Notes under the pieces: generated by a model
The model's database searches: none
Seen by the model: the letters and a program-made list of their open reading frames with translations, nothing else
What the model was told of the DNA's origin: nothing
In this document: in pieces, positions 8,775-62,740 of the stretch
Numbering within the stretch: position 1 is the first letter of the stretch
How the letters are laid out: every line of letters starts with the position of its first letter
Made by a program: the position numbers and the translations under genes
NCBI GenBank assembly: GCA_051006215.1
Contig: JBPCIO010000141.1
Coordinates: forward strand, 50,455-114,454
Length of the DNA stretch: 64,000 bases
Reading direction: 5' to 3'
From: Chloroflexota bacterium
GTDB lineage: Bacteria > Chloroflexota > UBA6077 > CF-72

Positions 8775-10286
8775 TCAGTATGCGCCGCGGCTGGTCAGCA
8801 CCGCGGGGATCGTCCGCAGCAAGATCTCGAGATCAAGTGCCAGCGACCAGTTCCGGATGTAATGCAGGTCGAGTCGGACCATGTCATGGAACGGCACCTC
8901 GCTGCGGCCGCTGACCTGCCAGAGACCCGTCAGACCAGGCACGGCACGCAACCGGCCCAGTTGCCAGTCTTCATACTGCTCAACCTCGGCTGGGAGCGGC
9001 GGGCGCGGTCCAACCAGGCTCATCTCACCTTTGAGCACGTTCAACAACTGCGGAAGTTCATCAAGGCTCCAGCGGCGAAGGAGGCTGCCTACGCGTGTCA
9101 CCCGTGGATCGCGTCGCATCTTGAACAGTGGGCCAGACGCTTCGTTGTGCTGCCGCAGCGTCTCGAGACGATGCTCGGCGTCCGCACACATCGAGCGAAA
9201 TTTCAACATCTTGAAGCGCTGCCCGTCCTTGCCTACGCGATCTTGGCGGTAGAACACCGGTCCAGGCGAGTCAAGCTTGATCGCTACGGCGATGATCGAC
9301 AGGACCGGCGCGAGGACGATGAACCCCGCACTCAGCACGACCAGGTCCATTGCGCGTTTGACCCAGCTCACTGCCGCAGCCGGCATGTAGCCGATGTACT
9401 GCCGGCCGCCAAAGGTTTGGACATGGAAGCGTTCCGGCAGTCGTCCACCTAGCTCGGGCAGGAGTTTCACCTGCACGTGACGCCGAAAGCCGCGCGCCAG
9501 AACGCCGCTGACCTGTTCGCGGCGGCCGCTGGGTAGGGCGATGATGAGCTCGTCGACAGCGTACGCCTGGACCATATCTTCAAGTTGAGCAATCGGACCG
9601 AGCAGTGGCAACTCGAGAGTCTCGAGGTCACTGCCGTTATCCACGTAGCCGACCACCTCGTAGCCAGTCTTGAGCTCGTCGGCCAGTTCTCGGCCCAGGC
9701 GATTGGCGCCGACAATCAGCACCCGATTGGCTGGGAAGAGCGCGTCGCGGAGCACTTGATATAGGCGATGCGCAAGCGCTCGCCAGATGACCAATGCGGT
9801 CACCGAAATCGCCCACCCACTGACTAACCAGAGGCGCGAGAATGCCTGGTCGCCCAGGAAGTACGAGGCGCTGAAGCCCAGCACCAGCCCCGTAGAACTT
9901 GACGAGGCAATGCCCCGCAGGCGAAACGGCCAGGGCTGAGGTCGTTCGAGGTCGTACAGGCCGTGCGTAGCAAGGAGGGCACTCGTGAACAGCCCTACGA
10001 GCGCGGCCAGACGGATGTAGCGGTCCAATCCGAGCGTGGGCAAGCTGTCGTCGGCGGCGAACCGTCCGACATAAGCCAGCATGAAGGCACTCGCTACGAA
10101 GACCACGTCGGCGACGGCCACACAGGCACTGCCCAACCCGGGGAGCACCCGCCGGCGACGCCTGTTGATGGTTGCGCTGGAGCGTTGCTGAGGTGCCTCG
10201 TCGGCCCACACGCTCGGGTCGTCGGCACGTAGTTGGGCGGTGCTCATACTGGCGAGCTGTTGCGCGCCACACGGGTTGCTATCCAT
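8775..10286 (-). CDS. Polyprenyl glycosylphosphotransferase (WbaP/EpsB-like initiating sugar-phosphate transferase)
   Basis: N-terminal TM helices, a CoA-binding-like central domain, and a C-terminal bacterial sugar transferase domain (KFRSMCADAE...LDELPQLLNVLKGEMSLVGPRP). The start is uncertain: the ORF-track TTG is at 10403, and in-frame ATGs lie at 10286 and 10247. Confidence 0.8.
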   Translation of the reverse strand: MDSNPCGAQQLASMSTAQLRADDPSVWADEAPQQRSSATINRRRRRVLPGLGSACVAVADVVFVASAFMLAYVGRFAADDSLPTLGLDRYIRLAALVGLFTSALLATHGLYDLERPQPWPFRLRGIASSSSTGLVLGFSASYFLGDQAFSRLWLVSGWAISVTALVIWRALAHRLYQVLRDALFPANRVLIVGANRLGRELADELKTGYEVVGYVDNGSDLETLELPLLGPIAQLEDMVQAYAVDELIIALPSGRREQVSGVLARGFRRHVQVKLLPELGGRLPERFHVQTFGGRQYIGYMPAAAVSWVKRAMDLVVLSAGFIVLAPVLSIIAVAIKLDSPGPVFYRQDRVGKDGQRFKMLKFRSMCADAEHRLETLRQHNEASGPLFKMRRDPRVTRVGSLLRRWSLDELPQLLNVLKGEMSLVGPRPPLPAEVEQYEDWQLGRLRAVPGLTGLWQVSGRSEVPFHDMVRLDLHYIRNWSLALDLEILLRTIPAVLTSRGAY

Positions 10287-10446
10287 GCAAGCGGCGGCAG
10301 TCCGCTCAATAACCAGAGTGATCCCCAGACCACGCCCGTGGCCACCATGAGCAGGCCTGTGGTTAGCCCACCCGAGCAGTTTTCCTTGTCCTGCTCGTTC
10401 CAACCAAGGTCCCCAGACAGGCCGGCCGTTTGCAATCTCGCGTCCA

Positions 10447-11340
10447 TCATGAAGTCAAAGCGACCGCATCAGGCGGTTCACCTGAATCACTTGGGCCGGC
10501 CCATACGAGGCGGCCGAGCATCGGCAGGTCATTCACCAGGTATCGGCGCCAGAGGCGTTGCGGCTCACGGCTCAAGCGGAAGGCCCATTCCAGGCCAGCC
10601 CGCTGCATCCACAGGGGTGCACGGCTCACGGCGCCTGCCAGCAGGTCGAGTACGCAACCAACGCCCATGGCGATGGGCATCTGCAATTGCGCCTGGTGCT
10701 CGCGGATCCATACATCTTGGCGCGGCGCGCCAAGCGCGACGAACAGGAAATCGGCTCCCGAAAGACGAACCATGTCCACGATGCGCTGGTTCTCCTCGCG
10801 CTGCAGGGGCCCGATGGGTGGTGAATACGCCCCGGCGACGCGCAAACCCGGCTGCAGACTCTGCAATCGGCGACCCGCAGCCTCGGCTACGCCCGGCCCA
10901 GCGCCCAACAGGAACACGCTTCGATCTAGCTCGGCAGCCAGTCGGCAACTGGCGATGACCAGCTCAACACCCGCCACACGCTCGGGTAGGGGTTGACCTC
11001 GCAGACGCGACAGCCAAACCAGCGGCATGCCGTCGGCGACCGCCAGGTCCGCGGCATTCAGGGTCGCCCGGAACTCGTGATTGCGCTCAGCTATGCTCAA
11101 GAAATCGAGGTTTACGGTCACAACCTGATGTGCCTGGCCCGAGCGCGCAAACTCACCGATGCGCTCGACCGAGCCGGCCAGGTCAACCTGATCGATCAGG
11201 ACGCCGCCGAGCTCCACGCGGTTGCGCGAACTCTCGCCGCCTTCCGCATACCCCGCCACTTTGGGAGGTACCTCCGGCGACGGGCTCAGGAGTGCGTGCT
11301 GCGACAGCGTAGCTGTCGACACCACTGCCTCAGTCGCCAT
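10447..11340 (-). CDS. WecB/TagA/CpsF family glycosyltransferase (GT26)
   Basis: Characteristic GT26 core (VTVNLDFL...ADGMPLVW...FLLGAGPGVAE...ADFLFVALGAPRQDVW). ATG 11340 is preceded by a GGAGGA SD; the ORF-track start 11373 is less likely. Confidence 0.8.
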   Translation of the reverse strand: MATEAVVSTATLSQHALLSPSPEVPPKVAGYAEGGESSRNRVELGGVLIDQVDLAGSVERIGEFARSGQAHQVVTVNLDFLSIAERNHEFRATLNAADLAVADGMPLVWLSRLRGQPLPERVAGVELVIASCRLAAELDRSVFLLGAGPGVAEAAGRRLQSLQPGLRVAGAYSPPIGPLQREENQRIVDMVRLSGADFLFVALGAPRQDVWIREHQAQLQMPIAMGVGCVLDLLAGAVSRAPLWMQRAGLEWAFRLSREPQRLWRRYLVNDLPMLGRLVWAGPSDSGEPPDAVALTS

Positions 11341-11518
11341 GCTCAATTCCTCCTCTGGCGGTGGACCAACCACGCGCTCGTACTTGAAGCCTCATTGTTT
11401 GGTCGGGCGGTGGGGCATCCGTACAGCCGAAGTTACGATTTGGTTGCGCCACTCTTGCCGTTGTCCCGAGTGCTGCAATGGCTTCTCAACCCGCGCCCAA
11501 GGCGCCGGCGTACACGTG

Positions 11519-20331: not shown

Positions 20332-21393
20332 GTGATCGAGAACGCTCCGCGTGTCCGGCCGCTGGTGTCGGTGGTCATGCCGGTCTACAACGGTGAGCGA
20401 TATCTGGCGGAGAGTCTCGACTCGGTACTCGCCCAGACCTACCCGAACTTCGAGGTGCTCGTCATGGACGACGCTTCAACCGACGGTACCTGGGCGATTG
20501 CCGAGGGGTACGGCAGCCGCGTGCGCGCACACCGGCAGCCAACCAATCGTGGTATCTACGCCAACGCCAATGCTGGCATCGACATGGCCAGAGGTGAGTA
20601 CATCGCGTTTTACCACGCCGACGACGTCTACGAGCCGACCATTATCGAAAGCGAAGTAGCCGTCCTCGAGGCCCGGCCTGAGATTGGCGCGGTTTTCTGC
20701 AAGGACCTGTTCATCGACGCTGCGAGCCAAGTGTACGGCCGCCTGGAACTCCCACCGGAGCTTCGGGGGAGTAGCGCTGTGGGCTATTCGGATGTGCTGA
20801 ATGCGCTGCTCACATATAAGAACGCGTTTTTGCGTTGTCCAAGCTGCCTGGCGCGTGCGTCCGTGTATCGCAGTGTGGGACTGTACCGCCAGGACGAGTT
20901 TCGGAATACCGCCGATCTTGACATGTGGCTGCGCATATCGCGCGCCTATCCCATCGTCGTCCTGGACGAGTACCTGTTCCGCTACCGTCACAATGTCGGC
21001 AATTCCGGACAACGGTACCGCCACCTGCGTACGGATCCCGAACGATTCTTCGCGATCATGGATCTCTACCTCCAGTCGGCCGAAGACCGGCGGTTGGTAC
21101 GTCGCAGCGCCCTCACGGCGTACGAAGGCCACCGCGCACAGGACAACCTGATGCGCGCGATCAGCTACTACGTGTTGGGTCAGGTTCCAGAGGCCGCCCG
21201 GGTGCTGCGCGAGGTGGATGGGCGGCGCTTGCTGGCAAGCCCGCGCTCCCAGCGCGTGCGCATGTTGGCCCTGCTGGGTGTGCTGCTGCTCCTGGTACGG
21301 CTGCCACGCGTACCGGGCGCGGCCGACGCGATGTATCGCCGCTGGCACGCCCAGACCGCTCCAGCGGCGGCGTCGCATCCGGCGCAAGGCTGA
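20332..21393 (+). CDS. Glycosyltransferase family 2
   Basis: N-terminal GT2 signature VSVVMPVYNGERYLAESLDSVLAQTY...VLVMDDASTDGT and a DxD-like motif. Confidence 0.8.
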   Translation: MIENAPRVRPLVSVVMPVYNGERYLAESLDSVLAQTYPNFEVLVMDDASTDGTWAIAEGYGSRVRAHRQPTNRGIYANANAGIDMARGEYIAFYHADDVYEPTIIESEVAVLEARPEIGAVFCKDLFIDAASQVYGRLELPPELRGSSAVGYSDVLNALLTYKNAFLRCPSCLARASVYRSVGLYRQDEFRNTADLDMWLRISRAYPIVVLDEYLFRYRHNVGNSGQRYRHLRTDPERFFAIMDLYLQSAEDRRLVRRSALTAYEGHRAQDNLMRAISYYVLGQVPEAARVLREVDGRRLLASPRSQRVRMLALLGVLLLLVRLPRVPGAADAMYRRWHAQTAPAAASHPAQG

Positions 21394-21398
21394 CCAGC

Positions 21399-23294
21399 AT
21401 GTGCGGCATCGTCGGCGTACTCTCGCGCGAACCGATCGACGTGGGCCTGGTGGAGCATATGCGCGATCGCATGCTCCACCGCGGTCCGGACCACGGTGGT
21501 AGCTGGCGTTCGAGCGATGGTCACGTCTGTTTCGGTCACCGGCGGCTAGCGATTGTCGACCTGACACCCGAGGCCAACCAACCCTTCGTTTCGCAGGATG
21601 GCCGCTTCGTCGTCACCTACAACGGCGAGATTTACAACTTCAAAGTCCTGCGCCACGAGCTACAGGCCTCTGGCGTGCACTTCACGACTCAGTCCGACAC
21701 CGAGGTCCTGGTGGAAGCCTATCGCCGGTGGGGTAGCGCCTGCGTCGAACGCCTGTCCGGCATGTTCGCGTTCGCGCTCTGGGACCAACTCGAGCATCGC
21801 CTGTTCTGCGCCAGAGATCGAGCCGGCGAAAAGCCGTTCTACTACTCGCTGGCACACGGCAGCTTCATCTTCGCCTCCGAGCTCAAAGGGCTTGTGGACT
21901 GGCCGGGCTTCCGCAGGGTCCCGAACTACGCGGCGCTCATCGACTACCTTTCGCTGGGTTTCGTGGCTGACCCCAAGAGCATCTGGGAAGGGGCCAGCAA
22001 ACTCCCACCGGCACACTCGATGTATGTCACGTTCGATGACTCGGGGTTGCCAGTCGTCCACCCGCCGGTTGCGTACTGGGATCTCGAGTTCGACCCAGAT
22101 TACACGATCTCGGACTGGGGCTCTCCCATCCGTGAGACGCTCCAGGCAGCCAGCCGCGAGATGGCCTTTGCAGATGTACCCGTCGGCGCGTTCTTGAGCG
22201 GGGGGGTGGACTCGTCCTCAGTCGTGGCCGCCCTCAGCCAGGGTGGCCACGACGTTCGGAGCTTCACGATCGGCTTCGACGAGAGCGGGTACGACGAGCG
22301 CGGGTGGGCCCGTGCTGTGGCTCGCCAGTATGGCGTCTCGCATACCGAGCGAGTGGTCGTGGCCGACGACATCGATCCGGTCTTCAATCGGCTTGTCTGG
22401 CACTACGACGAGCCATTCAATGACTACTCCTACCTGCCCACGTACTACCTGTGTCGGGAAGCGCGCCGCAACGTCACTGTCGCGCTGTCGGGGGATGGGG
22501 GCGACGAAGTCTTCGCCGGCTACCGCAAGTATCAGCGGCTTGCGCTGCGCGCGCACGTACGTGGCCTGGTGCCGTCGCCGCTGAGCTCGCTCATGGCAGC
22601 AACGGCCCAGGCGCTCTTACCCGCGGCAAGCCAGTTGCGGCGAACCGTGAGGCAGTATGGCCTCTCCGAACCCGAGGCCTTCGCCGATATGCTCACGACC
22701 GGCCTCAGCATACCGATGCTTCGCTCAGCTGCGCGCGGTCCGCTGGCCGAGGCATTGCGCCATTACACGCCGCTGGACGCTGTCGAACCTCTCGTACGCC
22801 ACGCCTCCCCGAGTCGTGTCGGTGCCATCAACACCATGCGCTATCTCGACCTGAAGCTCACCCTGGCCGGCGACATCCTGACCAAGGTCGACCGGGCGAG
22901 TATGGCTGTGTCGCTCGAAGTCCGCGCGGTTTTTCTGCATCGTGATCTCATGGACCTCGCCCGGCGGATCCCACCTGAACTGCTCGCGGATCGGTGGCAA
23001 GCCAAGCGCGCTTTGAAGTCAGCTCTCGAACCTTGGCTGCCCAACTCCGTTCTCTATCGGCGGAAGATGGGGTTCGCCATGCCCCTCAAGGCATGGATCG
23101 ACGGGCGCCCGGACGCGCTACCCGAAGATGGCGGCAGAGCGGCGCTGCGCGAGCTACTGGACGAAGGTCTCATGGACCGCATGCTCCGCGGCCACGCCGC
23201 GGGAAAGGCGGATCTGAGCGCCGCAATTCACGGTCAACTCTTCCTCCAGAGCTGGCTGCATACCTGGATGGATAGTGCAAAGCCAGCGGCCTGA
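21399..23294 (+). CDS. Asparagine synthetase (glutamine-hydrolysing)-family amidotransferase
   Basis: Starts MCGIVG (N-terminal nucleophile Cys of class II glutamine amidotransferases), followed by an AsnB-like synthetase domain (SGGVDSS). The ORF-track entry 20925.. is an over-extension. Confidence 0.85.
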   Translation: MCGIVGVLSREPIDVGLVEHMRDRMLHRGPDHGGSWRSSDGHVCFGHRRLAIVDLTPEANQPFVSQDGRFVVTYNGEIYNFKVLRHELQASGVHFTTQSDTEVLVEAYRRWGSACVERLSGMFAFALWDQLEHRLFCARDRAGEKPFYYSLAHGSFIFASELKGLVDWPGFRRVPNYAALIDYLSLGFVADPKSIWEGASKLPPAHSMYVTFDDSGLPVVHPPVAYWDLEFDPDYTISDWGSPIRETLQAASREMAFADVPVGAFLSGGVDSSSVVAALSQGGHDVRSFTIGFDESGYDERGWARAVARQYGVSHTERVVVADDIDPVFNRLVWHYDEPFNDYSYLPTYYLCREARRNVTVALSGDGGDEVFAGYRKYQRLALRAHVRGLVPSPLSSLMAATAQALLPAASQLRRTVRQYGLSEPEAFADMLTTGLSIPMLRSAARGPLAEALRHYTPLDAVEPLVRHASPSRVGAINTMRYLDLKLTLAGDILTKVDRASMAVSLEVRAVFLHRDLMDLARRIPPELLADRWQAKRALKSALEPWLPNSVLYRRKMGFAMPLKAWIDGRPDALPEDGGRAALRELLDEGLMDRMLRGHAAGKADLSAAIHGQLFLQSWLHTWMDSAKPAA

Positions 23295-51663: not shown

Positions 51664-52800
51664 ATGCGCGTTCCGCTAGTTGATTTAGCAGCCCAGTTCC
51701 AGCCCATCAAACACGAAGTGATGCGGGCGATCGAAGACGTCCTGGGCGACATGCATCTATTTCTCGGTCCAAACACCCATGCGTTCGAAGAGGAGTTCGC
51801 CGCCTACTGCGGCGTGCCCTTCTGTGTCGCCGTCGCCAATGGCACAGACGCGCTGCACCTGGCTCTGCGGGCGGCGGGGGTGGGCCAGGGTGATGAAGTG
51901 ATCACCGTCGCGCACACCTTCTTCGCTACGACCGAAGCGATCGTGATGGCTGGGGCCACGCCCGTGTACGTGGACATCGATCCACGCACCTTTACCATGG
52001 ACGTCAGCCAGATCGAAGCGCGGATCACACCCCGCACCAAGGCCATCATGCCGGTACACCTGTACGGCCAGATGGCCGATATGGACCCGATCATGGACAT
52101 CGCCGCACGCTACGACCTGGTCGTCGTCGAGGACGCCGCCCAGGCCCACGGCGCCGAATACACCGGCCGCCGCGCGGGATCGATTGGGCAACTGGGGGCT
52201 TTCAGCTTCTACTACTCCAAGAACCTCGGCGCGTACGGCGAAAGCGGCGCGGTCGTCACCTCCGACCCCGAGCTCGCCCGCCGACTGCGTCTGTACCGTG
52301 ACCACGGGTCTGAGCAGCGCTACCACCACCTCGAATTCGGCTTCAACTCGCGCATGGACGAGATCCAGGCGGCTGTGCTGCGTATCAAACTACGCCATCT
52401 CGAGTCCTGGAATGTTCAGCGCCGCCAGCACGCGGCTGTCTACGATCGTTTGCTTGCCAACACGAATGTGGCACTTCCCGCAACCGCGCCTGGACGCACC
52501 CACATTTATTACGTCTACGTGGTTCGAAGCGCCGACCGCGACGGGTTGCAGCAGGCCCTTGCCGAGCACGACATAGGAACCGCGATTCACTTCCCCATTC
52601 CCAATCATCTGCAGGCGGCCAGCCGCAGGCTGGGCTATCACGAGACTGACCTGCCGCATACGGAGCAGGCCGCGCGCGAAGTACTGTCGATTCCGATGTA
52701 TCCGGAGCTCACTGGCGATCAGCTGGAGTGGATCGCCGCGTGTATCAGCCAGCACGTCGGGGTGGGTAACAGCTTCGAGTCGCACGTTCCCGTTTCTTGA
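51664..52800 (+). CDS. DegT/DnrJ/EryC1/StrS-family PLP-dependent sugar aminotransferase
   Basis: Typical N-terminus VPLVDLAAQF and a YSKNLGA motif containing the PLP-binding Lys. Confidence 0.85.
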   Translation: MRVPLVDLAAQFQPIKHEVMRAIEDVLGDMHLFLGPNTHAFEEEFAAYCGVPFCVAVANGTDALHLALRAAGVGQGDEVITVAHTFFATTEAIVMAGATPVYVDIDPRTFTMDVSQIEARITPRTKAIMPVHLYGQMADMDPIMDIAARYDLVVVEDAAQAHGAEYTGRRAGSIGQLGAFSFYYSKNLGAYGESGAVVTSDPELARRLRLYRDHGSEQRYHHLEFGFNSRMDEIQAAVLRIKLRHLESWNVQRRQHAAVYDRLLANTNVALPATAPGRTHIYYVYVVRSADRDGLQQALAEHDIGTAIHFPIPNHLQAASRRLGYHETDLPHTEQAAREVLSIPMYPELTGDQLEWIAACISQHVGVGNSFESHVPVS

Positions 52801-52896: not shown

Positions 52897-55200
52897 TCAG
52901 CGGACGCTCACCGTCGCAGCGCTGGCGTTCCAGCTGTAGAGCGTCCCCCAGCCAGGCGAGAACACGCCGATCATGACCGTGTACCTACCGCTGTTCGCAT
53001 CGGCAGACACCTGCCACGTGGCAGTCAGGCTGCGTGTCTGACCGGCGCTGAACGATCGGTTGTCCCACGCTTGCTGAAACACCTTGGTGCCCGAGGCGTC
53101 GTACACCTCGAGGTCGACCAGCGCCGAGATCGCCGTGTTACTCCTCACCCGCGCCGTGAGTGCCACGTTGGTGCCCCGCTGGGCGACCGCTGGGGTGATG
53201 GCGCGGGTGGTGAATCCGATCTGGGTCGAGCCCGGCGTTGGTGTTGGCGTTCTGGTTGGCATCAAAGTCGACGTACTGGTGGCAACTGGCGTATTGGTGG
53301 GCACCGGCGTGCTGGTCGGCTTCGGAGTTGACGTGTTCACCGGGCTCGTCGTCGCAGTCGCAGTCGACGCCACGTCGGCGGTGACCGAAAACGTGCCGGC
53401 TGAGCTATTCCAATTCTCGAGCGCGCCCCAGCCCGGACCAAAGACGCCAACCATGATCGTGTACGTCCCGGTGGCAGCGGTACTGGGCACCTGCCAGGAC
53501 GTGCTGAACAGCCTCGGTTGTCCGGCGCTGAAGGCCTGGTTGTCCCAGTACTGCTGCGACACCTTGGTAAACGACGGGTCGTACACCTCGACGTCGATCA
53601 GCGCTGGCGATGCTGGCGGATTCGTGACCGTCGACGCTATCGAAACGATCGCACCCCGCGCGATCGGATTTGGTGAAGCGGCGGCGCTGCTGGAAAACCC
53701 CGATTGCCCCGGCTGCGTAGCCGTGGCAGTCGGCGTGACCGCAGGGCTCGGAGTGGAAGTCGGGCCGGTTGTCGGTGTGGAGGTCGGGCCTGTGGTTGGC
53801 GCCGAGGTTGGCGTACTCGTCGGCGGCGGCCCGCCGCTCAGCGGAATCGGGTTCGTGTAGTACGCCTGCCCCTGCAGACGGACGTAGCCACCATCGTCGT
53901 CCGGCACGCTTGACACGTGCGTATTGCAGATCTGTCCGGAGCTGATGCCGTCTGAGGTGCAGAAAGAAGCTGGATTCGTAATCCCATCGTTCTTGGAGTC
54001 GGTGTACGTCGTGTTTCCGGCATTGCCAGCGCCAAACATCGCACCCACGATGCCAACATTGATCAGCTCCTGAACGTGGCCGAAAATGTACTCGGCGCGG
54101 TTGTCCTGGAAATGACCGTCGGTATTGTTTTCGGTATCGAAGTACTGGTTGCCGAGTGGGACCTGCCACAGCAGCATCGGCCGGTTGGCGTCGGCCACAA
54201 TTGCAGCCTGCAGGTACTGCTCCCACCTGGCGAAGTTCGGAAAGCTCACGTTGTTGCGGTCCCACCACCGGTTTTGCCCAAACTGGACTTTGTACTGCCC
54301 GGCATCACGATCCAACGGATCGTTGAACAGCAGCTCGTGGGCTCCGAATTGGCTCACGAAGGCGCCCACCTGTTGCCCCAGCGCAGCCGCGTTGGTGTTG
54401 GAGCTGGTGTCCGTACCGATGTCGATGCCCGTCGCCCAGGCGGACACGTGGTACGCCAGCAACACGTTCGGCGCATACATGTCGCGGATGTGCGCCAGGG
54501 CCTGCGTGAACCCAGCGTAGGTGTTCGAATACACCGCCACGTCGGCGTAGCCAGAGCTACTTACTGACGCTTTCAGCAAACCAGGGTCGTTGCCCTGCCC
54601 GGTGCAGAAGCCGAAGCACGCGCCCACGTTGTTGTTGACCGCTTGCATGGCGTACCCGCCAGTGAAATCTGGCTCGAGGTCAATCAAGGCCGTCTTGCCA
54701 AAACCCTGGACACCGTCGTATGTGCCCGTCCCGAGGCGCTTCATGAGCAGGGCAAAGTTCTGGTAGTACGCGCTCATGAGCGGGACCGTATTCAAATTGG
54801 TGATGTCCTTCTGATTCTCGTTGCAGTTGGTGCAGCTGCCACTACTCTGCAGCAGCTCGTAGTATGGAAACACGGGTATGTAGCCGTGTTGCGCGGACTC
54901 CAGCGCATAGTTCGAGGCAAACGTTCCACTGGAATTCCATGTCTCCCAACCCGCTCCGGTGTTGACTCCGCCGACCAGGTACTGGTACCGGTAGTCCCAG
55001 CGAATGCCACTCTGCGGCATCCACGTGTCACCCTGCCCGGCCGCCAGGCCAAATCCGAAATGCGAAGGCAGGCCACTCGGTACGGTCTGGGCTGGGGCAG
55101 CCTGCAAGGGCAGGCCGAGTGGCACAGCAAAGACGAGGGCGGTCAGGCAGCTCAGAGCTGTCCGTGTGGCCGAAAACGGGTATTTTGCAGATAACAGCAT
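52897..55200 (-). CDS. Secreted multidomain carbohydrate-active protein: N-terminal putative glycoside-hydrolase-like domain, Pro/Thr linkers, two tandem C-terminal beta-sandwich (CBM-like) repeats
   Basis: Signal peptide from ATG 55200 (MLLSAKYPFSATRTALSCLTALVFAVPLGLPLQAAPA). Two PT-rich linkers. Two ~100-aa repeats at about 55% identity (…LIDVEVYDPSFTKVSQQYWDNQAFSAGQ… / …LVDLEVYDASGTKVFQQAWDNRSFSAGQ…). Confidence 0.6.
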   Translation of the reverse strand: MLLSAKYPFSATRTALSCLTALVFAVPLGLPLQAAPAQTVPSGLPSHFGFGLAAGQGDTWMPQSGIRWDYRYQYLVGGVNTGAGWETWNSSGTFASNYALESAQHGYIPVFPYYELLQSSGSCTNCNENQKDITNLNTVPLMSAYYQNFALLMKRLGTGTYDGVQGFGKTALIDLEPDFTGGYAMQAVNNNVGACFGFCTGQGNDPGLLKASVSSSGYADVAVYSNTYAGFTQALAHIRDMYAPNVLLAYHVSAWATGIDIGTDTSSNTNAAALGQQVGAFVSQFGAHELLFNDPLDRDAGQYKVQFGQNRWWDRNNVSFPNFARWEQYLQAAIVADANRPMLLWQVPLGNQYFDTENNTDGHFQDNRAEYIFGHVQELINVGIVGAMFGAGNAGNTTYTDSKNDGITNPASFCTSDGISSGQICNTHVSSVPDDDGGYVRLQGQAYYTNPIPLSGGPPPTSTPTSAPTTGPTSTPTTGPTSTPSPAVTPTATATQPGQSGFSSSAAASPNPIARGAIVSIASTVTNPPASPALIDVEVYDPSFTKVSQQYWDNQAFSAGQPRLFSTSWQVPSTAATGTYTIMVGVFGPGWGALENWNSSAGTFSVTADVASTATATTSPVNTSTPKPTSTPVPTNTPVATSTSTLMPTRTPTPTPGSTQIGFTTRAITPAVAQRGTNVALTARVRSNTAISALVDLEVYDASGTKVFQQAWDNRSFSAGQTRSLTATWQVSADANSGRYTVMIGVFSPGWGTLYSWNASAATVSVR

Positions 55201-55710
55201 TGCTTGAACCTCGGGCCTGGTCCCGTCTGAACCGACCACGTCAGATACACGGCGCGTGCGTGTCTAAGGGGACGGCTTGAAGGCCTTCCCGTCGTCGCCA
55301 CCTGGAGATGTATCAGGCGGCCTCGGAGCGACTTAGCTGCACGCTGGAGTCCCACATGGACTCCAATCTCGGACAGTTTCGTCCGATTTGCTCACCGGCA
55401 GGTAACGGAGCCGTGAGCCAACTGTGCACGCCACGACAACAAACGCGCCTGCGCGCCCGATGGTTATGGGCGGAGCGACCGAATTCAAGTGCGGCCGGCA
55501 AGGAGGTGGAGCTGCGCGGACGGCGTGCGCCAACGTGACCGGCAACACTGCCAGCCCCGCTCAGGTCCAGTGCCTGAGGCGTTTGAGTTCGATCGGACTC
55601 AGCCCCTGCTTCAACTGGGCTGGCAGGGCCAGGTTGTCTGTCAGATTGGTGACCAGGGGGCAGCCGAGCCCCAGGGGCGCTCGGAAGCGAAGCTAGCTCG
55701 TCCAGGGCAC

Positions 55711-55779: not shown

Positions 55780-56463
55780 CTAGCCGCGGGATAGGCTGTA
55801 GCCTACCCCTAGCACCGCTTTGATGCCGCGCTTGCCGCTTGGCGCGAGCGACAGCTTTTTACGGATGTGGCAGATGTGGGTCTTGAGCAGGTTCGAGTTG
55901 CCCTCGTCGTAGTAGCCCCAGGCGTACTCGATCAGCCGCGAGTAGGGGATGATGCGACCCTCGTTGAGCGCCAGCATATACAAGATGCGAAACTCGAGCC
56001 GGGTCAGCTGGACTGGCTTACCGGCTTTGGTCACTTCGTGCGACTGCAGGTCGAGGACAAGGTCGCCAACGCTCACCTGACTGGCTGGCTGACGGTAGGG
56101 ATCCGTCTGGCAGCGGCGCATGACCGCCTTCATCCGCGCAGCCAACTGCTTGGCGCTGAACGGCTTGGTCATGTAGTCGTCGGCACCGATCTGCAAGCCG
56201 CGCAGGATGTCCTCTTCCTCGTCCCGCGCCGTGAGCATGATGATCGGCGTCTTCGACTCGTGGCGAATGCGGCGGCAGACCTCGAATCCGTCAATCTTGG
56301 GCAGATTGCCGTCCAACAGGACGATATCCGGACTCTCACTCTCCCAACGTTGCAGGGCCTGCTGGCCGTCGACAGCCGCGAGTACGTTGTAGCCTTCGCG
56401 CCGCAGCGCGTAGGTCATCAGATCCAATAAATCAACGTCGTCGTCGACGACCAAAACCTTCAT
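55780..56463 (-). CDS. OmpR-family response regulator
   Basis: Receiver domain (VLVVDDD...DIVLLDGNLPKIDG...KPF) plus a winged-helix Trans_reg_C domain. Confidence 0.85.
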   Translation of the reverse strand: MKVLVVDDDVDLLDLMTYALRREGYNVLAAVDGQQALQRWESESPDIVLLDGNLPKIDGFEVCRRIRHESKTPIIMLTARDEEEDILRGLQIGADDYMTKPFSAKQLAARMKAVMRRCQTDPYRQPASQVSVGDLVLDLQSHEVTKAGKPVQLTRLEFRILYMLALNEGRIIPYSRLIEYAWGYYDEGNSNLLKTHICHIRKKLSLAPSGKRGIKAVLGVGYSLSRG

Positions 56464-56485: not shown

Positions 56486-57301
56486 TTAGGAAACGATGCT
56501 CAGGTGCGATTTTGCGGCTAGGCCTCGAGCATTTGCGGGGATGGAAAACCAGAACCGAGCGCCACCACCACGGCGGCTCTCGACGCCCACGTCGCCGCCA
56601 TGGGCTTCGACGATAGACTTGACGATTGACAGGCCGAGGCCCACACCGTCCTTCCCACTATCGGCAGTTGCCGGGTCTCGATAATAGGGTTCGAACAAGC
56701 GATCTGCCTGGTCTGGCGAGACGCCAGGCCCGCGATCCGCGACGCACACCCGCACCGCACCAGGGCGAATCGAGATAGACAGGTCAATGGGTGTCTTGGC
56801 ACTGCTGAATTTGCTCGCGTTCATAATTAGATTGATGAGCACCTGGCCCAGGCGGCGGCTGTCTGCCAGCACTTCGGGCAGGCCGGCGCCGATGCGAACC
56901 CGCAGGCGCTGCCCGCGCTGCGCCAGGAGCGGCCCGACCACGGCATCGACATCGGCAAGCAGGTCCGACACGCTCAGCGACTGGCGGTACAGCTTCAGCC
57001 GACCTTCCAGAATTGTGGCGGCGCACAGCAGGTTCTCCACCAGCCCTTGCAGCCATAGCGTGCGTCGGTGCATCGCGCCCAACATGCTTTTGATCTGTTC
57101 GGGGTCTAGCTGCAAGAAGTCTTCTGCCAGTAGCTCGGACGACTGGGCCAGAGCGGTCAGCGGCCCACGCAACTCATGCGCCACGGTCGCAAGGACGGTG
57201 AGCTCATGCGCGGGTTGGGGTAAAGAAGGAGTGTTCAAGGCTTCAGGTAGGACTGGGGTGAGTCGCATGCTCGTCGCGGACCACTCTTGCGCCATATGCA
57301 T
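56486..57301 (-). CDS. Sensor histidine kinase (cytoplasmic, HisKA + HATPase_c, no obvious sensor domain)
   Basis: H-box AHELRGPLTAL. N-box LINLIMNASKF. G-boxes DRGPGV and GVGLGLSI. ATG 57301 is preferred; the ORF-track start is 57373. Confidence 0.8.
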   Translation of the reverse strand: MHMAQEWSATSMRLTPVLPEALNTPSLPQPAHELTVLATVAHELRGPLTALAQSSELLAEDFLQLDPEQIKSMLGAMHRRTLWLQGLVENLLCAATILEGRLKLYRQSLSVSDLLADVDAVVGPLLAQRGQRLRVRIGAGLPEVLADSRRLGQVLINLIMNASKFSSAKTPIDLSISIRPGAVRVCVADRGPGVSPDQADRLFEPYYRDPATADSGKDGVGLGLSIVKSIVEAHGGDVGVESRRGGGARFWFSIPANARGLAAKSHLSIVS

Positions 57302-57802
57302 TTTCAAGTCCAGGGGATCATACGTGTAGAACACGTAAAGCCTCGTAACAGAGACCGTGACAATGCCGTACAAGCGGCTGGCCGGGTTACAGGCGCGTTA
57401 CAAAACGACGTGGGGGTTGCGGGCGCGTTCACTTCGAGCCCGGGCCGGCGCCCTGCCGTCGTCAGGGTGCGCGCCATCTGCAATTTTCGCCTGGTCAACA
57501 GATTGCTAACGCGGCGTGAACTCATTCGCAACACCTGGCTCGCCGGCAGCGACGCTCAAGGGCGCCGGGTGGTTGAGGCAGTCGCGGTTACGACCCGGTA
57601 GCGCCCCAGCGCAGCGGTCAAGGCAAGTGTGGTTCATACCTCCGCCACGATTTGATCGAGTAGCACACTGCCGGCATGGCAGATCTGGCACTCAACTGGC
57701 AGCCCGCAAGCTGAGCCTCGGCGAGTGCATGCCGCACTGAAGCTCTTCCGCGACCGCTCCTCGAATCGTGGCTGCTGGCATTCTGGGCGATGGCCGTCGT
57801 GC

Positions 57803-58567
57803 TCAGTCGACGTGGCCCGGGCCGGATTCTGAACCCGGACCCGTGCTGCCTGGCTCGTCGTCTTCGGCGCTGAGCCTGACGCCGACGCCAGGGATGGTAT
57901 GCAGCAATTGCGGCCGCGCGGGATCCTGTTCGAGCTTGCGGCGCAGGCGGTGGACCGTCACCCGCACCACGTCCGACCCGCCTGGATCGTTGTAACCCCA
58001 CACCTGCGTGAGCAGCGTGCCCGTCCGAACCACCGTTCCAGCATTGGTCATGAGGCAGTGCAGCAAGCGAAACTCGGTCACCGTCAGACTCACCGCCTGG
58101 CCCGACTTGGTGACCGAGTGTTGAGCCAGATCGAGGGTGATACTGCCAACTTGTAGCCGCATCTCGGGCGCGCGCCGCACGGGCATTTCGCGACCACTAC
58201 GGCGGAGATGCGCACGAATTCGGGCCACCAGCTCGCGATGACTGAATGGCTTGGTTAGGTAGTCGTCGGCCCCGGCCTCCAGGCCACGTACCTTGTCTTC
58301 TTCGGAATCCAGAGCGGTCAACATGATGACCGGCAGTTGCGAGCGGCGGCGCAGCTCCTTGAGCACCTCCAAACCGCTAGACGCGCCCAGGTTGATGTCC
58401 AAGACGACCAAATCGGGTGTTCGTTCGTCGAGCAGACGCAGCGCGGTCACCGCGTCGTGAGCTCCAATCGGGTCCAGGCCGGCCCGTTTGAGCGCAAACG
58501 CCAGCAGGTCGATCAGCTCGCGGTCGTCGTCAACCAGCAGAATGCGCACTGCGCTTCGCGTCCTCAT
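57803..58567 (-). CDS. OmpR-family response regulator
   Basis: ILLVDDDRELIDLL...DLVVLDINLGASSG...KPF, followed by a winged-helix domain. ATG 58567 is preferred; the ORF-track 58807 start is an over-extension. Confidence 0.8.
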   Translation of the reverse strand: MRTRSAVRILLVDDDRELIDLLAFALKRAGLDPIGAHDAVTALRLLDERTPDLVVLDINLGASSGLEVLKELRRRSQLPVIMLTALDSEEDKVRGLEAGADDYLTKPFSHRELVARIRAHLRRSGREMPVRRAPEMRLQVGSITLDLAQHSVTKSGQAVSLTVTEFRLLHCLMTNAGTVVRTGTLLTQVWGYNDPGGSDVVRVTVHRLRRKLEQDPARPQLLHTIPGVGVRLSAEDDEPGSTGPGSESGPGHVD

Positions 58568-59780
58568 GTGCCGGCCGCGGAGCGGTGGGTAAGGTGAACC
58601 AAACCGCGGTGCCACTCCCGATGGCGCTGGCGATGCCGATCGTGCCGCCGTGCGCCTCGACGATGCCCTTGGCGATAGCCAGTCCGAGTCCAACCCCAGG
58701 CGCATCGTTTTCGTTTCGAATGCGATAGAACCGTTCGAATAGCCCAGCCTGCTGATCGAACGGGATGCCCGGACCTTCGTCTTCCACAGTGATGCGAACC
58801 ATAGCATCGGTGAAACCCGCGCTCACACGGATCTCGGCCGCTTCGGGGCTGTACTTCGAGGCGTTCGCCAGCAGGTTGGACAGCACTTGGCGCGCATAGC
58901 GCCGATCAGCCAGCACCTGCGGCAGGTCCGAAGGCACGTCGATCTGGATCCGTTGCCGACGACCCTGCGTGGCCGGGGTGACGATCTCGAGAGCATCGTC
59001 CAAAATGCGTCGCAGGTCGACCTTGCGCGGGGCGACCACAAAATGACCTGACTGAATACTGCCGGCGCTGAGTAGATCTTCCATCAGCGAGTGCATGCGG
59101 TGAGCGGTGCGCCTGGCCGAGCCGAGCACCTGAGCGAATTCTTGGTTGGTGAGATTCGGGTACTCGGTTTCCAGGATCTCGAGCGCACTGTCGAGCACCA
59201 TCAGTGGTCCGCGGAGCTCGTGAGCAACGCTGTACAACAGTTGCTCCCGCAAGCGGTTGACCTCCGCATGCCGTGAAATGTCGTGGACGACATACACTGC
59301 ATACCCCTCGTCCGCGCCCTCGTGCCTCACCGTGCGGCTGACTTCCAGGTCGACCGTGCGGCCCGTAGCATCGGCCAGCCTGCCCTGCACGTCTCCAGAG
59401 ACCAGGTCGCGCGGGTCGGCCGCGAATGGCAAGAGTTCGCGAATGGCGCGACCATACAGACGGGCTGGGCTGCCGAACATGGCCACGGCAGCGGCGTTGA
59501 AGCCGGTCACCCGGCCGCTGAGCGACGTCGTGACAATCGGCGTCCGGATCGCCTCGAGCAGCTCGCGACGGTGCGCTGCCTGTGACGCGAGTTCCGATGG
59601 CCCAGCGCCCCTCGCGACCAGCCCTGGTGCGGGTGAGGGCTCGTCCGACACGTGTAGGGTCTCCTCCTCCGTGGTGCTTACCTTGCTCCGACCACGTGGA
59701 CAGTTCGGACCATAAATCGCGCATGCCGCTTCGTCAAGCAGGAGGCCGTATTGTTGGCCGAAGTTAGCCTGATCAGTCAA
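58530..59780 (-). CDS. PAS-domain sensor histidine kinase
   Basis: N-terminal PAS-like region. H-box AHELRGPL. HATPase motifs LSNLLANASKYS, DEGPGIP and GVGLGLAIAK. The 3' end overlaps the downstream regulator start. Confidence 0.8.
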   Translation of the reverse strand: MTDQANFGQQYGLLLDEAACAIYGPNCPRGRSKVSTTEEETLHVSDEPSPAPGLVARGAGPSELASQAAHRRELLEAIRTPIVTTSLSGRVTGFNAAAVAMFGSPARLYGRAIRELLPFAADPRDLVSGDVQGRLADATGRTVDLEVSRTVRHEGADEGYAVYVVHDISRHAEVNRLREQLLYSVAHELRGPLMVLDSALEILETEYPNLTNQEFAQVLGSARRTAHRMHSLMEDLLSAGSIQSGHFVVAPRKVDLRRILDDALEIVTPATQGRRQRIQIDVPSDLPQVLADRRYARQVLSNLLANASKYSPEAAEIRVSAGFTDAMVRITVEDEGPGIPFDQQAGLFERFYRIRNENDAPGVGLGLAIAKGIVEAHGGTIGIASAIGSGTAVWFTLPTAPRPAHEDAKRSAHSAG

Positions 59781-59973
59781 AACTCACCTGAATCCCCATC
59801 CGTCCTCAACCATCACGTTTGCCTCGCCATGCAACTCTCTACCTTCCGTGGCCACTGGCGCACGCCCAACCGAGGAGGCCCAAGAAGCGGGTTGATCATG
59901 CTTAGTACCTACACCTGGATACGTTTGCCAAGCCGATCCGGTTCAGACGCTCAGCCACGGTTGCGGGCAGACC

Positions 59974-60789
59974 GTGGCTAGAAACCCGCAGTTTGGCGAT
60001 CGGACCGGCAATCCGCACGCGCCAGGCGCGACCATCCTGCTGGTCGAGGACGATGCTGCGACGGCGCTCATGCTCACCAACGTGCTCGAGTCGGCCGACT
60101 ACCGTGTCCGCACCGCGGTCACCGGAGCGGCGGCGCGCGCCCTGGTCGAGCAACTCGAGCCCGACCTGATTATCCTCGAGCTTGTCTTGCCAGACGAGGA
60201 TGGACTTGTGCTGTGCAGCGTGCTCAAGAGCATGGCGGATGTACCCGTCTTGATCTGTAGCGGCACGCAGCGCCGTCGAGACGCCTTTTTGAGTCTGAAA
60301 CTGGGCGCCGACGACTTCATCGCCAAACCATTTGATGCCTACGATGTGTTGGCACGAGTCGAAGTTCTCCTCAGGCGTGCCACCCAGCGCCACGCCGGTG
60401 AGTTAAGCCTCTCGGGTGGTCCGATTCGGATCGGCGAGCTGCGCATCGATCACTCCCTGCATGAGGTCATGGTGGCGGATGCGCGCCTGCAGTTGACACC
60501 CACGGAGTATCGGCTACTGACCGTATTGGCCGAGCGGCCGGACCAGGTCGTGCCGCGAGATGCCCTGGCCAAGTTGGTCTGGGGCGATCCTGATACAGGC
60601 ACTAGTCGTACGATCGACGTGCACATCGGGCGCCTGCGAGTGAAGCTCAGCCAGAGTGGCCAGGCGGCCCCCCAAATCGTGTCCGTACGCGGGTTCGGAT
60701 ATAAGCTTGTGCGCCCCGCCAGCAGCCCTAGCGCGAGCTCAGACGAGGCAGCCTACCGAAGCCGACTTGCTGACGGACGTCTCGGCTGA
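59974..60789 (+). CDS. OmpR-family response regulator with Glu in place of the phospho-acceptor Asp (atypical receiver)
   Basis: Receiver domain ILLVEDDAAT...PDLIILELVLPDEDG...CSG...KPF. The canonical Asp of the (I/V)LD motif is Glu (ILELVLP); the other receiver residues are conserved. Winged-helix C-terminal domain. GTG start. Confidence 0.75.
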   Translation: MARNPQFGDRTGNPHAPGATILLVEDDAATALMLTNVLESADYRVRTAVTGAAARALVEQLEPDLIILELVLPDEDGLVLCSVLKSMADVPVLICSGTQRRRDAFLSLKLGADDFIAKPFDAYDVLARVEVLLRRATQRHAGELSLSGGPIRIGELRIDHSLHEVMVADARLQLTPTEYRLLTVLAERPDQVVPRDALAKLVWGDPDTGTSRTIDVHIGRLRVKLSQSGQAAPQIVSVRGFGYKLVRPASSPSASSDEAAYRSRLADGRLG

Positions 60790-60898
60790 GCACCCGGGCG
60801 GCCCTGCGTCCGGCTGACGCCAACTGGCAACCCAAGTACCATCCTGCTGTTAGCATGACGCTGAGCGGGTACGCTGGTTGAGTCGGAGGTTTGCTGAG

Positions 60899-62740
60899 AT
60901 GGTGCCACGGCAGGCAGGGGGCGGCCGCTTCTGGCGCGCGCTGCAGCGCGTTCGCAATTGGTCGCCCAGCCTCGCGCTAGGGGTCTCGCTCGTGCTCGGC
61001 GCTGTGCTCGGCCAATCGTCGCTGGCGACGGCGCAGCCTGCCGGACCTGGACTCGACTCGGGCTTCTTCCCGGCCACTGGCTACCGCATTGGCTCGCCCG
61101 AGGTACTTGCCTACTTCGAGCATCGAGGCGGCGTGCGGACGTTCGGCTACCCCGTGTCAAACGAGTTCCCGTTGCTGGGCCAACGCGTGCAGATCTTCCA
61201 ACGTCAGATGGTCCGGCTAGCCGCAGACGGGACGGTCAGTACCGCCAACATCCTCGACCCTGACGTGCTGCCCGTCAGTCACATCGACGGGCTGAGCCTA
61301 CCCTCGGCTGACCCCGAACTGCTTGGCGGGGCACCCGTTGCCGGCAGCGACAACTACACTGCGCAGGCGCTGTCGTTCGTCAGCGTGTACGTACCCGACA
61401 CCTGGAATGGCCTGAACGTGAATTTTCAAACCACGTTCTTGAATACGGTCACGTGTGCCGACGCCTATGGCGCTGACCCGTGCGACGAGTCGCAGCTGCC
61501 GGTCCTGGCGCTCGAGCTGTGGGGCCTTCCGACCAGCCTGCCGACGACGGATCCTGTGAATGCCGACTTCGTCTATCAGCGGTTCCAAAAAGGGATCATG
61601 CACTTTTCACGCGCAACTGGCTTCACCCAGGGGTTGCTGATCGGAGATTGGCTCAAGCGTATCCTGGTGGGTGTCGACCTGTCGCCTGACATTGGCATGG
61701 ACGTCCGCCATTCACGTTTCTTTGCGCAGTACGCACCGTCGCGCCCGTTGGCTCTGGATCGACCGGCCGACCTACCAGATACGTCTCTGGCGCAAGCCTT
61801 CCGAGCCGACACCCTGTCTGCGGCTGGCCAGACCCAGCTCGAGCCGACGCTACCCGCCAACGTCGCGTCGACGGCGACTTCCGTGGCGCTGACGGCTACC
61901 GCCATAACCGCAACCCAGGTGTCCTTTCAGAGTACGCAAACGGGGCTCCAGGGAACCCAGGTGGTGCTCACCCAAACCGCGGCCGCGCTCGCCGCGACCG
62001 CCCTGGTCGGGCAGTTCACGCCGACGCCGACCCCAATGGCGGCCGTCAGCACCGTACCAGTGGTCAACCTCGGCTGTATGGGCGATGAACAGTTATGGTT
62101 TACCCCCCGCAGGCCGAACATAGGCGTCCACGTCGACATCTCGGTCACTTCCCAACGCCACCACGACGCGCGCTCCATGCGATTGACCGGTCCCCTCGAT
62201 CCTGGCCCAGTCACTGAACGTACGGGCCCGCTGGGTTTTGTCTGGACCTGGACCGTGGTCCCGGCAGTCGAAGACTTCCACCAGTGGACCTTCTACGCCG
62301 ATGGCCTGCGGCCGTGCATCACCTCCGGCTTCAATGCGTACCTGCCACTCGGCGCGACGTCCACGCCCACGCTTACCCCACAGGCGACCAATACGCCGGG
62401 GCCGACCTCCACGCCCACGTCGACGGTGGTTCCGATGCCGAGCGTTGCCAACGCGACCCAGAACGGGACCTGCGGCTCGGTGATCACCGTCGTTGGCAGC
62501 AACTTTGGTTCGCCGCCTTCCAATGTGGGCACCAACGTCCAGTTGCTGGCTGGTCCGAGTAACGCCGGCACGCCCAAGCTGCTGAACCTTATTGGCGGGT
62601 CGAACACGCAGCTGACCGCCACGTTGCCGAGCAACGGCTTGGTTTCGGGTGGCGGCTATGCCCTCATCGTGTCCAATAACGGCGGCGCTTCGAACACCGT
62701 ACCCTTTACCGTAACCGGCGCGCCAGGCACGACCTGTTAG
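60899..62740 (+). CDS. Secreted protein of unknown function with PT-rich linker and C-terminal IPT/TIG-like domain
   Basis: GGAGG SD upstream of ATG 60899. Signal peptide. Thr/Pro-rich linkers. A C-terminal Ig-like segment (GTCGSVITVVGSNFGSPPSNVGTNVQLL). Confidence 0.5.
   Translation: MVPRQAGGGRFWRALQRVRNWSPSLALGVSLVLGAVLGQSSLATAQPAGPGLDSGFFPATGYRIGSPEVLAYFEHRGGVRTFGYPVSNEFPLLGQRVQIFQRQMVRLAADGTVSTANILDPDVLPVSHIDGLSLPSADPELLGGAPVAGSDNYTAQALSFVSVYVPDTWNGLNVNFQTTFLNTVTCADAYGADPCDESQLPVLALELWGLPTSLPTTDPVNADFVYQRFQKGIMHFSRATGFTQGLLIGDWLKRILVGVDLSPDIGMDVRHSRFFAQYAPSRPLALDRPADLPDTSLAQAFRADTLSAAGQTQLEPTLPANVASTATSVALTATAITATQVSFQSTQTGLQGTQVVLTQTAAALAATALVGQFTPTPTPMAAVSTVPVVNLGCMGDEQLWFTPRRPNIGVHVDISVTSQRHHDARSMRLTGPLDPGPVTERTGPLGFVWTWTVVPAVEDFHQWTFYADGLRPCITSGFNAYLPLGATSTPTLTPQATNTPGPTSTPTSTVVPMPSVANATQNGTCGSVITVVGSNFGSPPSNVGTNVQLLAGPSNAGTPKLLNLIGGSNTQLTATLPSNGLVSGGGYALIVSNNGGASNTVPFTVTGAPGTTC

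Follow-up and report, generated by a model that had tools for sequence, protein, structure and literature searches.

What does a glutamate at the phospho-acceptor position of a response regulator say about how that regulator works and how it arose? The question is raised by a gene, here called RR3, in a 64,000-nucleotide stretch (the window, that is, the whole stretch of DNA that was analyzed) from the genome of an uncultured soil Chloroflexota bacterium. RR3 encodes a response regulator of the OmpR/PhoB family, and the original prediction held that its receiver carries Glu in place of the acceptor Asp and could therefore be phosphorylation independent or constitutively active. About 4% of receivers lack the acceptor Asp, and Glu is the commonest replacement. 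We found that the Glu of RR3 does occupy the acceptor column and that it is a variant at the tips of a family in which nearly every other member keeps the Asp.

RR3 is 100% identical to a protein that NCBI describes as a “response regulator transcription factor” (P0001 in our set), encoded on a 142.5-kb contig of a Chloroflexota metagenome-assembled genome (MAG). Its domain composition is clear: Pfam recognizes a Response_reg receiver (PF00072; 81.1 bits against a cutoff of 30.2) and a Trans_reg_C winged-helix DNA-binding domain (PF00486; 84.2 bits against a cutoff of 26.2). An AlphaFold2 model shows the receiver as a (β/α)5 fold with strands and helices in the canonical order, which superimposes on the solved OmpR-family receivers 2a9o, 1xhf, and 1zh2 with a root mean square deviation of about 1.0 Å over 116 to 119 residues. 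No NCBIfam equivalog matched RR3 at its cutoff; the best, MtrA (NF040689), scored 177.8 bits, which is so far under the curated cutoff of 300 that RR3 is ruled out as an MtrA equivalog.

We then determined which residue of RR3 falls at the phospho-acceptor position. A MAFFT alignment of RR3 with Escherichia coli OmpR and PhoB, as the original prediction had proposed, together with the two neighboring regulators of the window, matched Glu69 of PDLIILELVLPDEDG to OmpR D55 and PhoB D53. The phmmer matches to the solved structures of MtrA (2gwr) and BaeR (4b09) gave the same register, with “dliilelvlp” set against “dlvlldlmlp.” In the AlphaFold2 model, strand β3 comprises residues 65 to 69 with Glu69 as its final residue, and the predicted local distance difference test score exceeds 90 over most of the receiver, including strands 1 to 3. 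OmpR/PhoB-family receivers have their acceptor Asp at the end of β3, and RR3 has Glu69 in that column. The predicted Glu is thus borne out by the alignment, by the matches to solved structures, and by a confident receiver model. RR3 has the sequence features by which an aspartate-less receiver, or pseudo-receiver, is defined: a receiver recognized by its profile from which the acceptor Asp is absent (PMC4395418, PMC12632262).

Whether the Glu characterizes the family or only this protein can be read from orthologs. Close homologs of RR3 form a large family, all from Chloroflexota MAGs or soil metagenomes, from which we took as the ortholog set the best 120 homologs in the protein databases (68 to 81% identity; the 120th best match is about 70% identical). 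In this set the acceptor column holds Asp in 118 proteins and Glu in two, the window protein and P0098, which is encoded at locus L001; none has Asn, Ala, Gly, Val, His, Tyr, or any other third residue. Among the matches listed from species-representative genomes and metagenomes, 12 further related loci (46 to 81% identity) all encode Asp, as GAC or GAT. The conservation of Glu among orthologs that the original prediction had put up for checking therefore fails. Because Asp is present in 118 of 120 orthologs and in 12 of these 12 loci, the RR3 family accepts phosphate in the canonical way, with Glu as a variant at its tips. In established atypical families such as ChxR, HP1043, and GlnR a noncanonical acceptor site is a trait of the orthologous group; in RR3 it is not.

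The codons indicate how the variant arose. The acceptor codon is GAC or GAT in 16 related loci and GAG in both Glu carriers, a single base from the GAC of most orthologous loci that were read. Shared descent of the Glu in P0001 and P0098 was considered and rejected: the two are not sisters, and the clade descending from their most recent common ancestor comprises 104 of the 120 tips. Each has nearer relatives that bear Asp, P0002 at 87% identity and the neighbor-joining sister P0005 in the case of P0001, and P0011 at 86% in the case of P0098. For these reasons we conclude that the Glu arose by two independent single-base changes. The DNA surrounding the two GAG codons contains many synonymous differences between the window and L001. 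Six of the eight nonsynonymous single-base neighbors of GAC encode residues other than Glu.

Apart from this residue, the active site of RR3 is intact, and the retention of the acid pocket, the Ser, and the Lys described in the original prediction was confirmed both by alignment and in the model (E25/D26, S96, and K118). The aromatic switch residue three positions before the Lys is F115, which aligns with OmpR Y102, as K118 does with K105; RR3 thus has the acidic pair, the Thr/Ser, the Lys, and the aromatic residue. Across the best 120 homologs, no variation occurs at D26, D27, S96, K118, P119, and F120, and conservation at E25, T98, and F115 is 90% or higher. Every family-invariant residue is kept by RR3 in both domains, and its coding sequence contains no frameshift or stop. 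Pairwise ratios of nonsynonymous to synonymous substitution rates (dN/dS) between RR3 and its orthologs are 0.10 to 0.18, with dS of at least 1, which places RR3 under purifying selection, although branches this long give no date for the origin of the Glu. RR3 deviates five times (N36, D42, E69, V125, and V167) at columns with conservation of 95% or more, a count in the upper tail for the 120 proteins; V125 (L125V) is common to RR3 and its Asp-bearing sister P0005. The other Glu carrier, P0098, has no further deviation at conserved columns, and a test for relaxed constraint on the two Glu carriers gave no clear signal of decay.

Starting from what is observed, namely, the position of the residue, its nonconservation, the one-base path to it, the conserved gene context, and purifying selection, we consider it fairly probable that RR3 carries a real, lineage-specific Asp-to-Glu allele in an otherwise canonical phosphorylation-dependent family, that it accepts no phosphate, and that its output is fixed, probably partly “on.” The ancestral protein would have been a normal phosphorylation-dependent OmpR/PhoB regulator of a conserved Chloroflexota family, in which one third-position change from GAC or GAT to GAG would have exchanged the acceptor Asp for Glu. 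Given an intact Mg2+/acid pocket, Ser96, Phe115, Lys118, α4-β5-α5 face, and DNA-binding domain, together with purifying selection on the gene as a whole, RR3 has most likely been retained as a working DNA-binding regulator. In Mycobacterium tuberculosis MtrA, D56E blocks phosphorylation and leaves DNA binding in place (PMC9045223); by analogy with such homologs, RR3 would no longer be phosphorylated and its output would be uncoupled from the kinase. The level of that output would be set by the Glu side chain, whose contacts with Ser96 and Lys118 would most probably keep RR3 constitutively but only partially “on.” OmpR D55E is activating or constitutive (PMC3310775), and Glu, which replaces the Asp of aspartate-less receivers more often than any other residue, frequently acts as a phosphomimetic (PMC4395418, PMC12632262). 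NtrC D54E (PMC4395418), CmrR D52E, and the inferred activity of CmrT E53 (PMC12548384) point the same way. Likely targets, judged from conserved synteny only, would be the downstream gene ORF620 and the divergent promoter region of the neighboring kinase and regulator genes HK2 and RR2 (Table 1).

Several points weigh against this account. Streptomyces venezuelae MtrA loses its function when it carries D53E (PMC9045223), and an Asp-to-Glu change by itself does not suffice to activate CheY, PhoB, or Spo0A (PMC4395418). Both Glu carriers are single tips and not clades, a pattern also expected of mildly deleterious or transient alleles. The databases searched hold no relative of P0001 that is more than 90% identical (cluster size, 1), which leaves the Glu without an independent sample, and the five deviations at conserved columns could hint at some relaxation. 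Most of these points suit a second explanation, which we regard as a possible but unlikely one: the allele is real and its function is lost, because Glu can be neither phosphorylated nor act as a mimic, so that RR3 is locked off and the branch is lost or has basal activity only. The closest characterized relative by NCBIfam and by the Protein Data Bank is MtrA, with the outcomes in the two species just given; two isolated tips out of 120 fit slightly deleterious variants at least as well as they fit a partly active regulator; and the excess of conserved-column deviations in the window protein, though mild, is in line with loss. What speaks against loss is the integrity of both domains, the absence of any further conserved-column deviation in the other Glu carrier, an ortholog column that holds only Glu besides Asp even though most single-base changes from GAC lead elsewhere, and the persistence of Glu-bearing paralogous clusters. 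Constitutive activity, as first suggested, is possible; because Asp-to-Glu has opposite effects in OmpR and Streptomyces MtrA, on and off are not decidable in silico.

It is improbable that the observed Glu stems from faulty assembly or sequencing, or from a minority variant in the MAG consensus, and that the real protein has Asp. In favor of this reading, the codon is one base from that of the orthologs and there is no second sample of the same species; against it, the sequence comes from a 142.5-kb contig of an NCBI MAG, and the same conservative change occurs independently at L001 in DNA that differs at many synonymous sites. An error would also have to strike this one base and yield one of the few neighbors of GAC that encode Glu; if the consensus error is assumed to lie between 1e-4 and 1e-3 per base, the expected number of such events in 120 sequences is below 0.1. 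Still less credible is the reading of RR3 as one of a conserved family of atypical regulators that evolved independence from phosphorylation, as in ChxR, HP1043, or GlnR. A Glu at the acceptor, the lack of a co-directional kinase, and the existence of distant relatives (30 to 56% identity) that include Glu clusters with degenerate pockets would fit such a family, but for the orthologous family it is refuted by the near-universal Asp, by an active-site set that is invariant or nearly so, and by orthologous loci that always lie beside HK2. The chance is negligible that D74 or D76 of the LPDEDG segment, the alternative named with the original prediction and one that has only proximity in sequence in its favor, is the true acceptor in an alignment of wrong register, given that Pfam, phmmer, and MAFFT agree on the register, that both residues lie in the β3-α3 loop of the model and not at the end of β3, and that both coexist with Asp69 in orthologs (ILDLVLPDEDG), the second also following D55 in OmpR (LPGEDG).

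The favored reading, an allele of one lineage in a canonical family, corrects the idea of a dedicated phosphorylation-independent regulator. Glu-for-Asp receivers, including studied OmpR-type examples, are already cataloged, so that RR3 on its own matters little and adds no new class of regulator. Its Asp-bearing orthologs are only 20% diverged and form with it a clean natural E/D pair for the effect of an Asp-to-Glu change.

To examine more distant relatives, we ran HMMER exhaustively over 1.84 billion cluster representatives (clustered at 50% identity), and the search returned 1,574 proteins at an E value of 1e-30 or less. The acceptor column was read in the best 150 of the 1,574 (P0241 to P0390; 30 to 56% identity), for which residue counts total 148: Asp in 130, Glu in 12, and Asn in 6. 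RR3 and these proteins belong to an OmpR-type, Chloroflexota-centered clade with the signature LPDxDGLVL...CS[GA]...DDF[IV]AKPF. The Glu representatives are scattered on a neighbor-joining tree of the single-domain members, and most of them also lack the second pocket acid (DSD, DGD, GHD, DPD, EPD, or ERN). Two, P0301 and P0349, have Glu with the pocket kept, like the window protein, and in one pocket-keeping cluster four distinct sequences, from at least seven contigs, share the Glu. The recurrence of Glu in 12 of 148 representatives and its persistence in one cluster therefore indicate that Glu is viable and recurrent in this clade. The neighboring tips P0286, P0330, P0321, and P0332, in which Glu is combined with loss of the second pocket acid (DGD, DPD, or EPD), look like an established pseudo-receiver subfamily.

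Glu accounts for 8% of the nearest cluster representatives, compared with about 0.5% expected from published figures for OmpR-type proteins, of which 2% lack the Asp, with Glu making up 26% of replacements (PMC4395418). Because clustering at 50% identity over-weights fast-evolving sequences, we take this enrichment as a modest lead for the evolution of pseudo-receivers and not as a result. The window protein looks like the earliest stage of a Glu switch in the clade. We tentatively raise a further reading, doubtful at present, that RR3 is a nascent pseudo-receiver at its first step, in which the Asp alone has changed while the Mg2+ pocket, the Ser, the Lys, and the kinase neighborhood are as before, and that it is a naturally selected locked-on allele in a switch-prone clade. 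If Glu alleles of this kind are indeed selected and locked on, the clade would offer a graded natural series of receivers gaining independence from phosphorylation.

Table 1. Features of RR3, its surroundings, and the remainder of the window (positions are those of the window)
Feature	Positions	Strand	Basis and remarks
RR3, OmpR/PhoB-family response regulator gene	59974-60789	+	GTG start, 271 aa; ORF list and translation, Pfam
RR3 receiver (REC) domain, residues 21-129	60034-60360	+	PF00072, 81.1 bits; AlphaFold2 fold; root mean square deviation to solved receivers
Acid pocket E25-D26-D27 after β1	60046-60054	+	E25/D26 aligned with OmpR D11/D12; MAFFT alignment, AlphaFold2, 120 homologs
Glu69 codon (GAG), phospho-acceptor column	60178-60180	+	MAFFT, phmmer, AlphaFold2; Asp (GAC or GAT) in orthologs
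Ser96, conserved Thr/Ser ending β4	60259-60261	+	Aligned with OmpR/PhoB T83; β4 is 92-96 in AlphaFold2
Lys118 after β5 (KPF), conserved active-site Lys	60325-60327	+	Alignment, AlphaFold2, family conservation
RR3 winged-helix DNA-binding domain (Trans_reg_C), residues 171-245	60484-60708	+	PF00486
Upstream ORF, 29 codons	59892-59981	+	TAG stop at 59979-59981 overlaps RR3 GTG start (GTGGCTAG); conserved GGAGG about 13 nt upstream
Conserved 30-nt noncoding motif ACTCACCnGAAnnnCnATnnnTyCTCAACC	59782-59811		Alignment of 8 loci
HK2, apparently soluble PAS-HisKA-HATPase_c histidine kinase	58530-59780	-	Pfam; transcribed away from RR3; the listed TTG probably lies upstream of the true start
RR2, canonical OmpR-type regulator, Asp acceptor	57803-58567	-	Co-directional with and downstream of HK2; Pfam, alignment
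HK1, short, apparently soluble HisKA-HATPase_c kinase	56486-57373	-	Pfam; likely start at about 57298
RR1, canonical OmpR-type regulator, Asp acceptor	55780-56463	-	Co-directional with and downstream of HK1; Pfam, alignment
ORF620, 620-aa hypothetical protein	60878-62740	+	Co-directional, downstream of RR3; synteny, homologs, AlphaFold2
780-aa secreted-looking protein	52897-55239	-	Pro/Thr-rich linkers; two repeated C-terminal Ig-like modules (weak MG2/BsuPI Pfam matches)
Wzc-like AAA_31 ATPase	1515-2288
Exosortase EpsH	7898-8770
Priming sugar transferase	8775-10403
WecG/TagA	10447-11373
Asparagine-synthase-like gene	20925-23294
DegT aminotransferase	51664-52800

The surroundings of RR3 bear on how it should be described. 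The two canonical kinase/regulator pairs reported beside it are indeed present, each consisting of a HisKA and HATPase_c kinase with a co-directional, Asp-bearing regulator. The label “orphan” holds in the narrow sense that RR3 has no adjacent co-directional kinase; its divergent neighbor is the kinase gene HK2, and that adjacency is conserved. The arrangement [RR2<-HK2]<->[RR3->ORF620] recurs at all orthologous loci whose flanking sequence is long enough to show it (L001 to L007), which makes RR3 a fixed third regulator of a two-kinase, three-regulator cluster and not a stray orphan. HK1 and RR1 usually lie upstream of this unit; in L007 they lie downstream of ORF620. The window ORFs that were scanned with Pfam include no unpaired kinase. 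In two-component specificity work, the α1 helix is the main surface for kinase specificity; that of RR3 is identical to those of RR1 and RR2 at only 2 or 3 of 14 positions, compared with 6 of 14 between RR1 and RR2.

The two pairs have features of their own. RR1 and RR2 are 43% identical and HK1 and HK2 are 39% identical, with similar α1 and H-box helices (...VAHELRGPL... in both kinases); HK1/RR1 and HK2/RR2 look like paralogous pairs, between which cross talk is conceivable. Both kinases appear soluble, as no membrane segment is apparent on reading their sequences, and the PAS domain of HK2 is their only Pfam sensor domain. The RR1 protein is 96 to 99% identical across L002, L003, L005, L006, and L007, whereas RR2, RR3, HK1, HK2, and ORF620 are only 64 to 86% identical; at similar dS, the dN/dS of RR1 is 0.01 to 0.04, compared with 0.10 to 0.18 for RR3. 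RR1 thus seems unusually constrained and is possibly an essential master regulator of the lineage.

ORF620 begins 88 bp after RR3, and its counterparts at orthologous loci are surface proteins of 600 to 730 aa. Its family is confined to Chloroflexota (352 proteins at an E value of 1e-5 or less), and at the orthologous loci ORF620 always lies just after RR3. In the AlphaFold2 model, an N-terminal membrane or signal helix is followed by a folded domain (about residues 55 to 280; confidence score of about 90), a disordered linker, and an Ig/IPT-like C terminus. ORF620 gave no Pfam, NCBIfam, or Protein Data Bank sequence match except an insignificant one to LGFP, and a Foldseek search of the Protein Data Bank returned Ig/IPT-like matches to the C terminus only. 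From its position, ORF620 is the most plausible target or operon partner of RR3.

The region between HK2 and RR3 contains two conserved elements. The first, a 30-nt motif kept in all 8 aligned loci, is unique in the window, where none would be expected by chance. It adjoins the listed start of HK2 and ends, on the minus strand, in GGTGAG; it could be an HK2 5′ leader with a putative ribosome-binding site (GGTGAG), or it might be a site for binding of a regulator. The second is an upstream ORF whose stop overlaps codons 2 and 3 of RR3 (GTGGnTAG) in 7 of the 8 loci, as TAG in six and as TAA in L086. The scan found a start preceded by GGAGG in five of the seven stop-bearing loci, and the encoded peptides are 10 to 46 aa long and not conserved in sequence. 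The overlapping stop is kept even where the N terminus of RR3 differs, and it uses AGA for Arg, a codon that should be rare in a genome of 63.5% GC. The arrangement suggests translational coupling or a leader peptide. L001, the locus of the other Glu69 carrier, has no leader region, no GGAGG, and no overlapping stop, and its 30-nt motif lies only about 35 nt from the start codon; this is a single case, and a tie to the Glu is unproven. Rfam gave no match anywhere in the window, the 30-nt motif included, and a promoter and terminator scan of positions 59600 to 61000 returned one weak promoter-like site on the minus strand and no terminator.

Most of the window from about position 1500 to 52800 is taken up by a large exosortase-type surface-polysaccharide cluster, which, besides the genes in Table 1, holds many GT2, GT4, GT87, and PMT_2 glycosyltransferases, acyltransferase_3 genes, and methyltransferases. 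The gene for the 780-aa protein sits between this glycan cluster and the two-component cluster, and it is absent from that position in L002 and L003.

Among characterized regulators, the closest homolog of RR3 is MtrA of Actinobacteria (E = 1e-39 to 2gwr by sequence and 4.7e-15 by Foldseek, in addition to the NF040689 score). RR3 differs from it in phylum, in lacking the MtrB/LpqB context, and in scoring so far under the equivalog cutoff. MtrA does not predict the outcome in RR3, because Asp-to-Glu abolishes function in S. venezuelae while DNA binding is kept in M. tuberculosis. Conceptually, RR3 stands nearest to ChxR and CmrT. Like RR3, Chlamydia trachomatis ChxR (Glu49) joins a receiver to a winged helix, has Glu at the acceptor position, and lacks a co-directional kinase; the activity of ChxR is independent of its Glu (PMC4395418). 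In ChxR and other characterized aspartate-less receivers, the replacement of the Asp is fixed across the family and usually comes with further changes in the active site or the dimer interface, whereas in RR3 only the Asp is changed, the other active-site residues are canonical, and orthologs keep the Asp.

Clostridioides difficile CmrT (Glu53), of the cmrRST system, is likewise an OmpR-family protein whose acceptor residue is Glu; its gene cluster has more regulators than kinases and includes a canonical Asp regulator, and CmrT is inferred to be constitutively active (PMC12548384). CmrT has an unusual DGD pocket and no Pro at D+4, whereas RR3 keeps E-D-D, P73 (D+4), and G77 (D+8); the two share no close sequence relationship and come from different phyla, and the RR3 cluster has two kinases and three regulators. 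The same substitution as in RR3 has been engineered in canonical receivers as OmpR D55E, NtrC D54E, and CmrR D52E, with phosphorylation-independent, often partial activity (PMC3310775, PMC4395418, PMC12548384); these are laboratory mutations, whereas Glu69 of RR3, known here from sequence alone, is a natural allele. Pseudo-receivers are intermingled phylogenetically with typical regulators and have many independent origins (PMC12632262), and the pattern seen in RR3 matches this published view exactly.

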